Positions 9,449-35,937 of a stretch of DNA of 64,000 nt are shown piece by piece. Origin of the DNA: Escherichia phage T4_ev151; sequence record LR597660; one strand, 5' to 3'. Numbering within the stretch: the stretch's first letter is position 1; each line of letters starts with the position of its first letter. Made by a program: the position numbers and the translations under genes. The notes under the pieces are model-generated. The model was not told the DNA's origin and searched no databases. It was given only the letters and a program-made list of their open reading frames with translations.

Positions 9449-9918
9449 TTTAAACTCTTTCTAAGCTGCTTCTTAAATGAAGCTATTAACTGTGTTTTGG
9501 TGTCAGATTCATTATATTCAAATCCTCTTTGAAGCATCTCGGCCATCATTTCCTCTTTTCCTAAACGAGAAAATTCCTTTGATTTATCTCCAACAAAGTT
9601 AGGGTGAATATTATTTTGGGTGTAATCGGATTTTAAGTAAGTAAGTAAATTTTCTAACCATTCAAGATAATCAACACCCTGTCCCTTTAAGCCAGAACGA
9701 TTAAATTTATGCTTCATTTGACCTTCTGCGGCATTGCAGAGATTACAAAGCAATCCACGTACCTTTCCTGCTTTTGGTCCATTTAATTCATGGTCATGAT
9801 CAAGGTGATTAGCTTGAACATCAGGATTTAGTTCTCGTTGGCAAATTAAGCATTTACCGTTTTGTGCATCATAAAATTTCTGTTTTTCTTCTTTATATAA
9901 TTTGCCAGTCAATAACAT
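9445..9918 (-). CDS. 49: Endonuclease VII (Holliday junction resolvase) gp49
   Basis: 157 aa, matches recalled T4 endo VII (MLLTGKLYKEEKQKFYDAQNGKCLICQREL...). Confidence 0.95.
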   Translation of the reverse strand: MLLTGKLYKEEKQKFYDAQNGKCLICQRELNPDVQANHLDHDHELNGPKAGKVRGLLCNLCNAAEGQMKHKFNRSGLKGQGVDYLEWLENLLTYLKSDYTQNNIHPNFVGDKSKEFSRLGKEEMMAEMLQRGFEYNESDTKTQLIASFKKQLRKSLK

Positions 9919-28168: not shown

Positions 28169-28498
28169 TCAATTAGAAAATAAATTTATCCAAGATTGTT
28201 CTTTAATTAAAAATGGCTCAGAATCATATGCCATTAAACTTTGCGTAATTAATCCTTTAAAAGGTCCATCAATAAATTCCATGGTAAAATATGGAATTTT
28301 ATTCATTAGCCGTGCATTAGGAGCAGTGCACAAAACTCTGCATCCTTTGAATACACCTTTTTGTAATTTGTATTGCTTGGGATAAAATTCGCTTAAAATG
28401 TTGTTATTTGCCAAAATTTCAAAATGATTCACCAATTTATTTTTAATAGTTTTTGGCGAAAAATAAAGATATTCGAAAAGCTGAGTGTCTGTCATCAT
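28169..28498 (-). CDS. Hypothetical protein (vs.7 position); start uncertain
   Basis: ATG at 28498/28495 or 28549. Confidence 0.45.
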
Positions 28499-29031
28499 TG
28501 CATTCCGATTACGAAAAACTGTGGACGAGTAATACCACCAATACAACATTTAATATTACAGCAGTAGTGTACAGTGTCAATATGGACGCTATAAATCTTA
28601 TCCATATCAGGAGATTTGACAGGCTCATCAATTATATACAAAATTCGCGAAAGCGATAAACCTCTGAACTTGCTTCCTTTATTACCAATAAAACTGCGCA
28701 CAGAATCAGTAAATAAACGAAAACGTATATCATTAGAATAACGCGAAAATTCCTTTTTAATGTTATTTGCAGAAATTTTAGCGTAAGCTGAAGTATTAGA
28801 AAGAACAATAACTGTTCCGCCATCATACAACCAATTAGCGGCAAAATTAGTTACTGCGGTTGATTTACCGGATTGACGTCCACCATCTAGTCGAAGTGTG
28901 CAATACTGCTTAAGTAAGTCTTCAAATGGTGGGATATATTCGTTTTTACAAATTTCTTCTACTCTAGCATCAGAATGGTGTGTAAAAGCATTCATCAGGG
29001 ATAGATAAGGACCAGTTAAAAATGTTCTCAT
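28495..29031 (-). CDS. Small P-loop NTPase (vs.8 position)
   Basis: Walker A GGRQSGKST, Walker B ILYIIDEP; start ATG 29031 preferred (track 29079). Confidence 0.5.
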   Translation of the reverse strand: MRTFLTGPYLSLMNAFTHHSDARVEEICKNEYIPPFEDLLKQYCTLRLDGGRQSGKSTAVTNFAANWLYDGGTVIVLSNTSAYAKISANNIKKEFSRYSNDIRFRLFTDSVRSFIGNKGSKFRGLSLSRILYIIDEPVKSPDMDKIYSVHIDTVHYCCNIKCCIGGITRPQFFVIGMQ

Positions 29032-29184
29032 TTTATTCTCTCTAAATTTGGGCCATTCCATGGCGCATGAATTGTCCATTTCTGTATTTACCCATTACCG
29101 CACTTGGGCTCGACCTTATTACAGGTTGGCGGGAATCCCTCATAGAATCATGAGGTCCAGCTTGTTCCCATATTTCTTATTTGC

Positions 29185-29658
29185 TTATTTGAATGATTTG
29201 ACGTACTGAATAGAGCCTTTGCTATTCACAAAGGCAATTTTACCATTTTTATTATACATGGTAGCAGTACGCTGATAACCATAAGTTTGTTTACCAGATT
29301 GATAACCAACTAATGCAAAATTATCTTCGCCCATTTTATTCTGTTTAGCGCGGATGCGTTCATGGCCATGTGCCATAAGAACCTTAGCATCACCAGTTGC
29401 AATGGATCGACGAGTTTTTTCATCTTCAACTGTATTAACAAAGTCGTCAAATGAATCAAATTTAGCATGAGATTTATTATACAGTTTTCCATCTACTGCA
29501 TAATTATATCCCTGTACATCCATCTCAACTTCTGTACCATCATCCAATACAGCAGTGATTTTTTGACCTTTTTTAAATTTCAAAAGATCAGTAAAAGATT
29601 CAGCAATAATTTGAGAATTAATAGCTGCTTCAGTAATAAATTCTTGATATGTTTTCAT
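29185..29658 (-). CDS. Internal protein family member (capsid-targeting sequence MKTYQEFITE)
   Basis: 157 aa; N-terminus MKTYQEFITEAA with LxE gp21-protease site; AAAGGAAA SD. Confidence 0.65.
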   Translation of the reverse strand: MKTYQEFITEAAINSQIIAESFTDLLKFKKGQKITAVLDDGTEVEMDVQGYNYAVDGKLYNKSHAKFDSFDDFVNTVEDEKTRRSIATGDAKVLMAHGHERIRAKQNKMGEDNFALVGYQSGKQTYGYQRTATMYNKNGKIAFVNSKGSIQYVKSFK

Positions 29659-29667
29659 ATGTTTCCT

Positions 29668-30084
29668 TTAAATGTAAATATTTTTGCCGTAATACTTGTA
29701 CCAGTGTGGCTTCATTAAAATTTTTTCATCAAGTCGTTGTTGACTCAATTTAATAGCTGATTTGCATGGATTATAATCATTTTTCCATTCTGCTGGAATA
29801 TCGCTGATGTCAGGAACTTCAGTATCTTTTATACTGAACCCGCGTTTTAAGCATTCCGTTATAATGTCTGATTGACGCTTTCGCAAAAATTCTAACTTAT
29901 CGTAAAAGAAAGTAACATGACCAGAACCTAAAATAAACTCGGAAGATATTTTAAAATCTTTAACCCGCTTACCATTTGCAACATGTTTACGAACTATACC
30001 AAAAACACGCGGCAATTCACGGTATTCTGCGATTAAATGTTGATCAGCAAGTTCAGATACTAAAGTCAAATTAATACGAGTCAT
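29668..30084 (-). CDS. denV: Endonuclease V (pyrimidine dimer glycosylase)
   Basis: 138 aa, [17 protein letters not shown]...; diverged from recalled T4 DenV; GGAGGG SD. Confidence 0.9.
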
Positions 30085-30143: not shown

Positions 30144-30674
<531 letters not shown>

Positions 30675-34218: not shown

Positions 34219-34308
34219 TTAAAATCCTTGAAATAATCTATCGGTTGGTTATTAATTATTTATTACTTTGTTATTATCCGTAACAGCGTTATCCGAGTGA
34301 TTCAAACT

Positions 34309-34336
34309 AAAAAGCCCCAACCTTTCGGTCGGGGCT
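34309..34336 (-). terminator. Rho-independent terminator ending the tRNA/stable-RNA transcription unit
   Basis: Minus RNA AGCCCCGACC-GAAA-GGUUGGGGCU then U5. Confidence 0.65.
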
Positions 34337-34652
34337 AAGCCTTGCGGCAACCTTGTCGGGGTTCCACCTGCTAAGGCAAGTGTTTGTACGAAACGCCGGG
34401 ATTCGAACCCGGTTATCAAGCAGTTGACGCTACTCAATATTTTTAAAAGGCCATATCTCGACCATATCCGAACGTTCCGTCAAAAACGCTACTCGGCTTA
34501 CGGCAAAGATATTTCCTCGAATCGATAATTCGGTGCGCCGTTTCTGCTGTGATATAAGGGGGCATTAACAAAACATAAAGATTTATTAATGCCAGTCCTT
34601 AAACAGGGAACATCAGTCCGACGACTTGCCGGTAGCGACCCGGCTTCTTGTC
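34337..34652 (-). ncRNA. Stable small RNA region (T4 species 1/2 position), with a tRNA-like T-arm
   Basis: No ORF; between tRNA-Arg and terminator; GGTTCGAATCC T-arm at 34392-34410 without a full cloverleaf. Confidence 0.4.
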
Positions 34653-34729
34653 TGGTCGAGGCAGAAGGATTCTAACCTTCAACCTACGGATTAGAAATCC
34701 GTTGCTCTATACAATTGAGCTATGCCCCG
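34653..34729 (-). tRNA. tRNA-Arg (anticodon TCT), CCA encoded
   Basis: Cloverleaf read by eye: acceptor cggggca/tgcctcg, anticodon loop tTCTaa. Confidence 0.8.
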
Positions 34730-34732
34730 TAA

Positions 34733-35398
34733 TTAAAATTTCATTTTTCGACCTTTAAACCATCCTTCTGGAATTGGGTCAGTTTTCTTAATACGTTTAG
34801 AAACTTTTTCATCTAATGAATGAATCCACATCATACCAAATTGGGAATTCTTTTCGCCCTGTTGATGTTTATTTCTGGCGTGAGATTCTTTCATTTTATT
34901 AATAGTTTCAGGAGTATGGGTCTTACCCAAGAAAGATTTAGTATTTAAAAATTTCTCTCTATACTTAGGATTATCCCAAAGCCGTTTAAACCTTTCTGAA
35001 CCCATTTTACGATATTTTTCTTTAAGGTCTGGGTCGTTCTCAAATCTGGTTTTAAAAGCGGCAGCTCCTTTTAAGGAAGCTTCTTTCTTTTTATCCAAAT
35101 ATTCTTTAGTGTTTAAATGGTCCCAACCACCTTCACCACCTAATTTCAAATTATAAACATCAGGGCGCTTTAAAAACTCTTCAGTCACAATATTCTTTTC
35201 TGACTCAAACATAGAGGTTTTATCGTCAAAGAACTCTAATATTTCTTTAGAAAAATTTTCTATACCATACTTATCTTGGGCTCTTTTTAATAATTTACCA
35301 GAACCCATATATCCATCATCTAAATTTTCGGTAGAATGAGCGCCTATATAGATTTTATTATTAATTTTATTTGTTATTTTATAAATGTAATGGAACAT
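34733..35398 (-). CDS. segB: GIY-YIG homing endonuclease SegB
   Basis: 221 aa; MFHYIYKITNKINNKIYIGAHS GIY-YIG core; sits inside the tRNA cluster as in T4. Confidence 0.85.
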   Translation of the reverse strand: MFHYIYKITNKINNKIYIGAHSTENLDDGYMGSGKLLKRAQDKYGIENFSKEILEFFDDKTSMFESEKNIVTEEFLKRPDVYNLKLGGEGGWDHLNTKEYLDKKKEASLKGAAAFKTRFENDPDLKEKYRKMGSERFKRLWDNPKYREKFLNTKSFLGKTHTPETINKMKESHARNKHQQGEKNSQFGMMWIHSLDEKVSKRIKKTDPIPEGWFKGRKMKF

Positions 35399-35439
35399 AA
35401 ATATCTCCTATTTCTAAGAGTATTTATGTTCTCAAAATA

Positions 35440-35511
35440 TGGCCCTGGGTGGAATTGAACCACCATCTGGCGATTATGAGTCGCTTGCTTGAACCTTCCA
35501 GCTACAGGGCC
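35440..35511 (-). tRNA. tRNA-Ile (anticodon CAT, lysidine-type)
   Basis: Acceptor ggccctg/cagggcc, T-loop ggttcaattcc, anticodon loop cTCATaa; assignment by T4 order. Confidence 0.7.
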
Positions 35512-35517
35512 TTGATA

Positions 35518-35590
35518 TGCTGATTGACGGAATCGAACCGCCGACATCCTCATTACAAGTGAGGTGCTCTACCTACTGAGCTAAATCAGC
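35518..35590 (-). tRNA. tRNA-Thr (anticodon TGT)
   Basis: Acceptor gctgatt/aatcagc, anticodon loop cTTGTaa, T-loop ggttcgattcc. Confidence 0.8.
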
Positions 35591-35597
35591 GAAATTA

Positions 35598-35684
35598 CGG
35601 AGGCGATAGGATTTGAACCTATGAGTCGCCGGAGCGACTGCCGGTTTTCAAGACCGGTGCATTAAACCACTCTGCCACGCCTCC
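35598..35684 (-). tRNA. tRNA-Ser (anticodon TGA), long variable arm
   Basis: 87 nt; acceptor ggaggcg/cgcctcc, anticodon loop cTTGAaa. Confidence 0.8.
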
Positions 35685-35686
35685 AG

Positions 35687-35760
35687 TCTCCGTGGCAGGA
35701 TTTGAACCTACGACATTCTGCTCCCAAAGCAGACGCTCTACCAAACTGAGCTACACGGAG
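35687..35760 (-). tRNA. tRNA-Pro (anticodon TGG)
   Basis: Acceptor ctccgtg/cacggag, anticodon loop cTTTGGGa, T-loop ttcaaat. Confidence 0.8.
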
Positions 35761-35772
35761 TAAATTAAATTT

Positions 35773-35844
<72 letters not shown>

Positions 35845-35850
35845 AAACTT

Positions 35851-35937
35851 TGGTACGAGAAGTGGGACTCGAACCCACAAGGAAATCATTCCGCAGCATT
35901 TTAAGTGCTGTGCCTTTACCAATTTGACCATTCTCGC
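35851..35937 (-). tRNA. tRNA-Leu (anticodon TAA), long variable arm, CCA encoded
   Basis: 87 nt; acceptor gcgagaa/ttctcgt, anticodon loop cTTAAaa. Confidence 0.8.

Follow-up and report, generated by a model that had tools for sequence, protein, structure and literature searches.

We analysed a stretch of 64,000 nt from Escherichia phage T4_ev151 (sequence record LR597660), referred to here as the window, and within it the spacer that lies between the internal-protein gene Ip4 and vs.8. As judged from sequence comparison, this spacer very probably holds a conserved structured RNA. Its central part is a domain of about 41–45 nt, which we call the core. Gene order at the locus is collinear with that of phage ime09 (Tequatrovirus), and the same gap is annotated in ime09 and in JK38. 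Over the stretch compared, the Escherichia phages slur03, slur14 and FJ1 show 97% identity to the T4-type window. The locus is composed as follows:

30144–30638, minus strand: e
29668–30084, minus strand: denV
29185–29658, minus strand: Ip4, internal protein
29032–29184: non-coding spacer between the minus-strand genes Ip4 and vs.8
29090–29130, minus strand: predicted core three-way-junction RNA domain, defined by covariance model and covariation, in single copy in the window
29029–29031, minus strand: start codon of vs.8, placed as in the ime09 and JK38 annotations (product of 178 aa, a P-loop NTPase)

The spacer differs from its surroundings in base composition, with a GC fraction of 0.49 in 29050–29149 against about 0.25–0.37 in most flanking 100-nt windows. 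The first-pass annotation of this DNA had drawn attention to GC-rich runs and a palindrome, and all of these details were found as described: gggctcgacc at 29106–29115 and ggttggcgggaatccc at 29125–29140 (plus-strand letters), and the exact palindrome cctcat-agaatc-atgagg, with 6-bp arms, at 29138–29155 of the plus strand. The palindrome is present, but it turned out to be only a lineage-specific peripheral hairpin; the conserved core corresponds to the GC-rich runs. Indeed, the 6-bp palindrome and the folding energy alone are not beyond chance, whereas conservation and covariation are. A 32-nt pattern of the core occurred once in the window, with none expected from shuffled sequences.

In the window the core reads, part by part, 5'-GCCA, ACCU GUAAUA AGGU, CGA, GC CCAAGU GC, GGUAA, U G GGU-3'. 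The family consensus is 5'-P1, ACCU-G-U-R-R-N-A-AGGU, C-R-A, G-Y-(loop of 3–7 nt)-R-C, GGUAA, N-G-NNN-3'. The hexaloop, the strands of the junction and a single bulged G contain about 20 nucleotides that are essentially fixed, while the helices covary. The predicted parts are:

29127–29130, minus strand: P1 5' strand (G29130, C29129, C29128, A29127; partners U29094, G29092, G29091, U29090)
29113–29126, minus strand: P2 hairpin, ACCU (29126–29123), hexaloop GUAAUA (29122–29117), AGGU (29116–29113)
29110–29112, minus strand: J2/3 linker C-G-A, family consensus C-R-A, somewhat variable
29100–29109, minus strand: P3 mini-hairpin, G29109.C29100 and C29108.G29101, with the variable loop CCAAGU
29095–29099, minus strand: J3/1 segment GGUAA
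29090–29094, minus strand: P1 3' strand (U29094, bulged G29093, G29092, G29091, U29090)

Support for this fold was obtained from two alignments. The ungapped alignment A1 contains 38 distinct cores, and the covariance model R1 was built from it. Later members with changes inside the core were recovered by a looser pattern, and in alignment A3 the sequences were fitted to the covariance model. In A1, the base before ACCUG pairs with the base after GGUAA in all 38 sequences (AU 23, UA 5, UG 4, CG 3, GC 3). The final model consists of the P1 pairs -1.+1, -2.+3, -3.+4 and -4.+5 with the bulged G between the first two, 4 bp in P2 and 2 bp in P3. Under this model, standard pairs fill 93.0% of the cells of the fitted alignment, compared with 79.6 ± 0.9% in shuffles, and 7 of 10 pairs show changes on both sides. 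The covariation score was 0.341 versus 0.097 in shuffles (0 of 500 reached it), and controls with slid partners did not exceed 0.049.

Inspection of the individual helices gave the same picture. Across the family, the P1 pair -1/+1 is AU in 41 cases, UA in 15, UG in 7, CG in 6 and GC in 3; -2/+3 is CG in 45, UA in 8, GC in 7, AU in 4 and GU in 1; and -3/+4 is CG in 51, GC in 11, AU in 2 and GU in 1. A first P1 register with four contiguous base pairs was dropped owing to its poor fit at the outer pairs. The adopted register, taken from mutual information on the model-fitted alignment, leaves out an invariant G that lies one pair away from the junction; this is the bulged G at +2 (29093, column G45 of A1). 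The P2 stem is nearly invariant, with rare compensatory variants (GCCA-GUGAAA-UGGU in locus L122; GCCU...AGGC in the second copy of L022). Its hexaloop, G-U-R-R-N-A, has U at the second and A at the last position in all but one of 74 distinct sequences, the exception being the first L140 copy, with C at the second position. The linker J2/3 occurs as CGA, CAA, CUA, CA or CU in other lineages. In P3, the second pair is CG in 59 cases, UA in 9 and GC in 2 and is never unpaired, U.A being found in at least five lineages and G.C in two. These variants decided for the pairing G.C plus C.G over a CC/GG alternative, which was rejected. A third P3 pair exists in some lineages (GCG/CGC in L146, GCC/GGC in L152, A.U in L162). 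The J3/1 segment GGUAA is invariant in A1, and in A3 a single degenerate copy lacks it.

The covarying pairs also report on the strand. G.U pairs outnumber A.C combinations by 34 to 17 overall; for the two inner P1 pairs alone the counts are 15 and 3. In every locus the element is co-oriented with the flanking genes or tRNAs. The excess of G.U and the constant orientation place the structure in the RNA of the transcribed strand. This excess, together with the compensatory changes seen in many lineages of phages, supports the suggestion of a structured RNA in the first-pass annotation.

The distribution of the element was analysed by similarity, pattern and covariance searches. BLAST with the spacer returned matches in more than 1000 phage records. 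A 43-nt piece, CCCGCCAACCTGTAATAAGGTCGAGCCCAAGTGCGGTAATGGG (29133–29091, minus strand), has 91–95% identity in Vequintavirus and in Pseudomonas phage PsgM04F. Further lineages came from pattern scans of IMG/VR and metagenomes, and the covariance search was run over these pattern-retrieved loci. R1 identified 82 copies in 80 loci; the window copy scored 72.4 bits and all but one of the phage copies scored 30–75 bits. The lineages with a core comprise several T4-like genera, Vequintavirus, a Pseudomonas phage, a 44-kb coliphage and many uncultivated phages. Those added by the pattern scans are contigs of 44–47 kb, including relatives of EcoPhCCP1, contigs of 70, 75, 96 and 117–130 kb and a jumbo contig of 360 kb. 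Several core-bearing groups are without a cultured relative. The core copies retrieved from T4-likes differ from the window copy at 0–5 positions, although the Vs.8 proteins are only 34–45% identical between genera. Tandem copies 30–60 nt apart were found in L140 (825–880 and 912–965) and L022 (5200–5254 and 5089–5141). The two copies in L022 belong to two different T4-like subtypes.

As a comparison, bacterial genomes were searched. The strict pattern gave no hit in 185,579 bacterial genomes, one per species. The loose pattern gave 97 hits in bacterial genomes, versus about 120 estimated by chance from its information content. None of the 97 scored above 27.8 bits, and a few are on metagenome-assembled contigs that could be viral. 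No match was found in 5,426 complete E. coli genomes. On these comparisons the core is restricted to phages, and it has spread horizontally among unrelated virulent ones. The idea of a remnant of an acquired element is therefore partly right: the core has moved between unrelated phages, but it is a maintained element and not a remnant.

We then considered the coding potential of the spacer. The only open reading frames (ORFs) in the gap are one of 33 aa (29042–29143, minus strand) and an in-frame extension of vs.8 by 16 codons to 29079. In the T4 reference genome NC_000866 (L118 = NC_000866.4, 1754–2413), vs.8 is annotated with 219 aa, beginning at an ATG inside the palindrome hairpin. In the window the same frame is the 33-aa ORF, which ends at 29042, before vs.8; the T4 frame is open only via an insertion just upstream of the real vs.8 start. 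The 33-aa ORF itself is annotated in one record (L003, 2146–2247). The ORF beginning ATGGAC is in frame with vs.8 in the window. It terminates at an ATGA overlap in both JK38 and L010, and L014 and Citrobacter phage Moon have it in a different frame, yet the nucleotides GYGCCANGGAAYGGCCC stay unchanged. JS98-type phages either lack the hairpin ATG or have a stop seven codons after it. Outside the T4-likes, core copies are located in unannotated gaps or beneath short, doubtful ORF calls. An open, conserved frame continuous with vs.8 was thus not found among the relatives. Because frames shift or stop while nucleotides stay fixed, the spacer is non-coding and the T4 annotation over-extended. All three coding candidates (the 219-aa Vs.8 of T4, the 33-aa ORF and an ATGGAC leader peptide) were rejected for this inconsistency of frame.

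The start of vs.8 was checked against protein profiles. Positions 2–177 of the 177 in PHROG 1488 align with residues 3–178 of the product, starting at MRTF. Since the alignment runs end to end, the start at 29031 is confirmed, and sequence comparison supports MRTF as the beginning of the 178-aa product in the window. The first-pass view that no convincing ORF is left in the spacer once vs.8 starts at 29031 therefore stands. It had also allowed for the region being the N-terminal coding part of its neighbour, which is how NC_000866 presents it. As this frame is broken in the window and in other T4-likes, the T4 annotation is at fault and not the reading as RNA. Homologues of vs.8 are found in T4-likes only. 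For its product (28495–29031), similarity to AAA domains and to the N-domain of the terminase large subunit is only weak and stays below threshold. No solved relative of Vs.8 was found by sequence, and no function could be assigned to it from similarity searches.

In T4-like phages the core is accompanied by additional conserved parts:

29131–29169, minus strand: putative S1 stem, GGGAA (29169–29165) with UUCCC (29135–29131), in Tequatrovirus, enclosing H1
29138–29155, minus strand: H1 hairpin CCUCAU-GAUUCU-AUGAGG, peripheral and T4-like-specific
29075–29079, minus strand: A-N-GGA block (AUGGA); A104, G106, G107 and A108 invariant in alignment A2 (T4-likes)
29050–29066, minus strand: 3' block GCGCCAUGGAAUGGCCC (consensus GYGCCANGGAAYGGCCC), T4-like-specific, 20 nt before the vs.8 start

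The CCUCA...UGAG arms of H1 are kept in 17 of 17 aligned T4-likes, with variable inserts between them. H1 is absent from the non-T4 lineages, which have other 5' hairpins. For S1, one compensatory variant was seen (GGGAG/CUCCC in L030). Enclosing stems that appear analogous to S1 were recognised by eye, without statistics, in Vequintavirus (GGGG/CCCC) and in the phage group F (GGAAC/GUUCC). The AUG of the AUGGA block is not a conserved start, as it is replaced by AGGGA in L030 and AAGGA in L034. The nucleotides of the 3' block are invariant across T4-like genera despite the changing overlapping frame. Most core copies, those of duplicated units among them, are followed by this block at +18 to +29 nt; in four loci the distance is +42 to +55. 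The first L022 copy has no 3' block nearby, the nearest being at +135. A second 3' block about 415–425 nt downstream was seen in L023, L128 and L132.

The element is followed by vs.8 in every T4-like phage. In Klebsiella phage K65_evo3 (L120, 687–741 and 1209–1263), core and 3' block are duplicated around an inserted internal-virion-protein gene. Here, one copy precedes the ip gene and the copy before vs.8 is degenerate, with GUGGCAA for GCGGUAA. RNAalifold paired the 3' block with the core strand GGUCG-AG-CC-CAA-GUGCG through 12 pairs, five of them G.U. Variation at the paired sites is confined to U/C opposite G, and one unpaired site varies between A, U and C. The energy of this duplex was not distinguishable from that of shuffled sequences, 18% of which were as good. 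A switch between core and 3' block in T4-likes was therefore not confirmed. Scanning for promoters and terminators gave no site in 29032–29184 on either strand.

Outside the T4-likes, the element is frequently found near tRNA genes. tRNA genes on the same strand lie within ~1.2 kb in 32 of the 52 non-T4 loci scanned. Several copies are inside a tRNA cluster or 34–45 nt from a tRNA 3' end (L152, L126, L117), and those of Vequintavirus and PsgM04F occupy unannotated gaps in or beside the tRNA cluster, on the tRNA strand. Reading by eye, we found an intrinsic terminator within ~20 nt 3' of the motif in L152 and L062. In Vequintavirus and EcoPhCCP1, a sigma-70-like promoter, likewise recognised by eye, separates the motif from the gene that follows. 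The position of these promoters argues for a stand-alone RNA in these phages. In EcoPhCCP1 (L007, 1545–1740), the motif is followed by the sigma-70-like promoter, ~60–70 nt and a strong intrinsic terminator, an arrangement that resembles a separate small transcription unit. Some tRNA calls in the motif-bearing clusters are unusual. In Vequintavirus there is a tRNA-like gene of ~98 nt with a 4-base anticodon call, atcc (L004 3583–3680, L027 1714–1812, L114 3782–3880, L149 270–367), and L047 carries a tRNA with a CUA anticodon, of the amber suppressor type (9535–9610).

The flanks of the non-T4 copies contain further elements. In the 46-kb group a long closing stem surrounds ~165 nt including the core. 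The closing stem UGCUCUUAUC-GUUGUG / CACAAC...GGUAAGAGCA was seen in 46-kb-type phages and PsgM04F, with its 5' arm recurring farther downstream, and in the same phages 500–700 nt of ORF-poor DNA surround the motif (L103 6700–7400; PsgM04F, L005 2372–2866). In group C there is a competing helix, CUAACCU with AGGUUAG. The sequence AGAGGGCUUGAWAGUGC precedes the motif in Vequintavirus (L004 2425–2460) and in group F (flanks of L104 and L109), and recurs just after the motif in group F; possibly it is a processing or regulatory signal. Among the protein genes, that of the terminase large subunit follows the motif at a distance of 1–3.5 kb in 10 of 16 non-T4 lineages, and several have genes for HNH endonucleases within 0.3–2 kb of it. 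An obligate partner protein was not apparent: vs.8 is absent outside the T4-likes, and clustering of the ORFs around non-T4 copies returned only terminase and HNH genes, at variable distance.

We compared the element with known RNAs. The 4227 models of Rfam 15 include riboswitches, ribozymes, pRNA, drum, skipping-rope, TwoAYGGAY and Y RNA-like families. None had a hit overlapping the spacer, even at E<=10, so that the Rfam scan proposed in the first-pass annotation yielded no family. At the gathering threshold, the whole window gave 7 tRNAs only, and nothing was found at E<=1 at the homologous site of the Vequintavirus and Pseudomonas phage loci. ARAGORN likewise detected 7 tRNAs in the window and none at 29032–29184. 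The core also differs from a tRNA in its loop, since the anticodon and T loops have 7 nt and the P2 loop has 6. The region was not mentioned in the T4 omics paper, and no description of it was found in the literature searched, although the 2023 catalogue of ~10,000 candidate viral RNAs may list it. We therefore treat the core as a new RNA family of unassigned class, absent from Rfam 15.

Among the closest parallels are rnaC and rnaD of T4, the species 1 and 2 RNAs of the tRNA cluster, which are likewise small phage non-coding RNAs co-oriented with tRNA genes and are probably matured together with the tRNAs. The core motif is absent from both sequences and there is no similarity. Moreover, the core lies 5.5 kb away between protein genes and is common to unrelated phage families, unlike rnaC and rnaD as seen here. 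In the window, homologues of rnaD and rnaC are present at 34300–34652 (minus strand), directly downstream of tRNA-Arg as in T4; they were not reported by the Rfam scan. Next to them, at 34653–35937 (minus strand), are seven tRNA genes (Arg, Met, Thr, Ser, Pro, Gly, Leu), versus eight annotated in T4. The tRNA-Gln and tRNA-Ile calls of T4 are missing and a tRNA-Met(cat) call is present.

Promoter-early stem-loop (PeSL) cassettes, which Arbiol and co-workers reportedly described in 2010 in plastic regions of T4-type genomes, resemble the element as conserved intergenic stem-loop cassettes in the variable ip/vs region, and the unit is duplicated around an ip gene in K65. In contrast, the core is a covarying three-way junction found also in non-T4 phages, and the spacer is without a sigma-70-type promoter. 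For lack of a promoter the PeSL reading fails, and PeSL, promoter and terminator readings were all dropped after the promoter and terminator scan. The pRNA of phi29 is a three-way-junction phage RNA as well, and in many non-T4 lineages the terminase genes follow the core at a distance of a few kb. But the core is much smaller, no Rfam pRNA match was obtained, and the proximity to terminase may reflect gene order only. T4 packaging is not known to require an RNA. Several resemblances serve as leads only. The window loop GUAAUA presumably matches the hexaloop of 23S rRNA helix 44, and U at position 2 with A at position 6 of the family loop presumably follows the U...A reverse-Hoogsteen pattern of T-loops; in the rRNA GTPase-centre junction, the order of helices differs from the core. 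The 16S rRNA 3' end (GUAACAAGGU), the UGUAAU turn of the SRP Alu domain, the tRNA-Tyr anticodon loop with UGU recognition by TGT, and the GGA sites of CsrA were also considered, but neither in the order of helices nor in the size of the loop does the core agree with any of these.

Taken together, these observations lead us to propose that the core binds a conserved partner, with its home in tRNA operons and a role as vs.8 leader in T4-likes. We put this mechanism forward tentatively, at somewhat below even chances; the favoured explanation as a whole, in which the structured RNA and the binding of a partner are blended, stands at about even. The spacer would be transcribed with its neighbours from the minus strand and would encode a compact, independently evolving RNA domain. 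Binding of a conserved partner is the most likely role of this domain, because its fixed nucleotides are unpaired and its helices are too short alone. The partner may be a host or phage macromolecule of the tRNA or translation apparatus, which we favour over a small molecule. The usual home in tRNA operons suggests release with tRNA processing and a partner from the tRNA or translation machinery. In phages with tRNA clusters the domain would probably be freed as a small RNA on tRNA processing. In T4-likes the module may have been recruited, with the 5' hairpin and the 3' block, as the leader of vs.8, or of the ip gene where it is duplicated, and binding of the partner would then alter processing or translation of the downstream ORF.

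A number of points weigh against this proposal. The thermodynamic signal for the fold is nil: the z-score of the minimum free energy (MFE) was -0.5 for the minus strand, -1.2 for the plus strand and about 0 for the core alone, and in six family members the MFE structure was no better than in shuffles and usually unlike the covariation model. Such low intrinsic stability would fit a fold that needs a partner. Alignment A3 was fitted to a model, though the P1 register finally adopted is not the one in that model. The tRNA association could partly reflect genome architecture, since the terminase large-subunit gene is downstream in 10 of 16 lineages. In T4-likes the element looks cis-regulatory rather than like a free RNA, as it is 5.5 kb from the tRNA cluster and always precedes one gene. 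The proposal does not account for the 3' block of the T4-likes. Finally, every functional claim for the element is an inference.

The alternative that fares best, though we regard it as unlikely, is a riboswitch. The junction would then be a small-molecule aptamer controlling the downstream gene, by alternative pairing with the 3' block in T4-likes and by terminator read-through elsewhere. Covarying stems around a fixed junction, as found here (93% of cells paired, 7 of 10 pairs compensatory), are the anatomy expected of an aptamer. Three short helices, fixed junction nucleotides, covarying stems and occasional tandem copies are features that the core shares with the purine riboswitch and the hammerhead. 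Consistent with a switch are also the tandem copies, the position directly upstream of vs.8 in all T4-likes, the 12-bp alternative pairing of core and 3' block with its compatible variation, the competing helix of group C, and the order motif, terminator, gene in L062 and L152. In contrast, the downstream genes are unrelated between lineages, or absent, and form no coherent set, and the promoters read by eye in Vequintavirus and EcoPhCCP1 would separate the motif from its gene. The alternative duplex was no better than shuffled sequence, no Rfam riboswitch matched, and the genomes scanned held no convincing bacterial representative. A riboswitch class without bacterial representatives would be unusual.

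A new small self-cleaving ribozyme, which would cleave polycistronic precursors of tRNA or mRNA at one fixed position, is improbable. Other small ribozymes are common in phages and near phage tRNAs. A three-way junction of ~45 nt with ~20 fixed nucleotides, including the bulged G and the junction adenines, is ribozyme-like in size and design, and its location between genes or tRNAs, on the transcribed strand and in variable contexts, would suit such a function, as would the tandem copies. But the case is pure analogy. Rfam returned no ribozyme family, no cleavage site is recognisable in the sequence, and the hammerhead-type CUGANGA/GAAA core is absent on reading the sequence, the junction being CRA and GGUAA together with the bulged G; unlike the purine riboswitch and hammerhead, the core has neither coherent downstream genes nor bacterial members found. 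We also give a low probability to a more specific pair of proposals: a ribozyme confined to virulent phages that would punctuate the precursors of tRNA operons and early mRNAs, or alternatively a counter-defence RNA decoy, embedded in phage tRNA clusters, that would neutralise a conserved tRNA-acting host enzyme.

A passive mRNA element, acting as a processing signal or a nuclease-blocking stabiliser of the flanking transcripts with no partner beyond a host RNase, is very unlikely. In line with this role, the core is placed where transcription units end, behind genes and ahead of terminators, and in T4-likes it lies between cistrons. For such an element shape suffices, and ~20 invariant unpaired nucleotides across unrelated phages would not be called for; in addition, the fold is weak alone.

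We consider a DNA-level site for packaging, recombination or a homing endonuclease highly improbable. The nearby terminase and HNH genes in non-T4 lineages, the weak similarity of vs.8 to the terminase ATPase N-domain and the horizontal spread would fit, but three covarying helices whose wobble pairs are A.C mismatches on the other strand, and the strict co-orientation with transcription, would not, and the T4-like copies are nowhere near terminase genes. Least credible is that the spacer codes for protein, as the Vs.8 N-terminus of T4 (219 aa) or as a small leader peptide, since the annotated T4 and 33-aa ORFs and the in-frame ATGGAC are set against frames that stop or shift over fixed nucleotides, a hairpin ATG lost or soon stopped in JS98-type phages, non-T4 copies in ORF-free DNA and a PHROG profile that begins at MRTF.

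T4 is among the best-studied phages, and in its reference genome the core is annotated as the N-terminus of a hypothetical protein. At minimum, the finding yields a new Rfam family, a corrected vs.8 start and a marker by which non-coding stretches in the tRNA regions of phages can be annotated. Since the motif is short and can readily be mutated in T4 and transcribed, its function is directly testable. Because the domain is near-invariant while neighbouring proteins diverge (~35–45% identity), and because it has been exchanged between T4-likes, rV5-likes, a Pseudomonas phage and numerous uncultivated phages, the RNA must contact something that is conserved and important in infection. The role of phage tRNA clusters is under active debate, between codon supply and evasion of tRNA-targeting defences, and the tRNA-gene setting of the core points to tRNA or translation biology.

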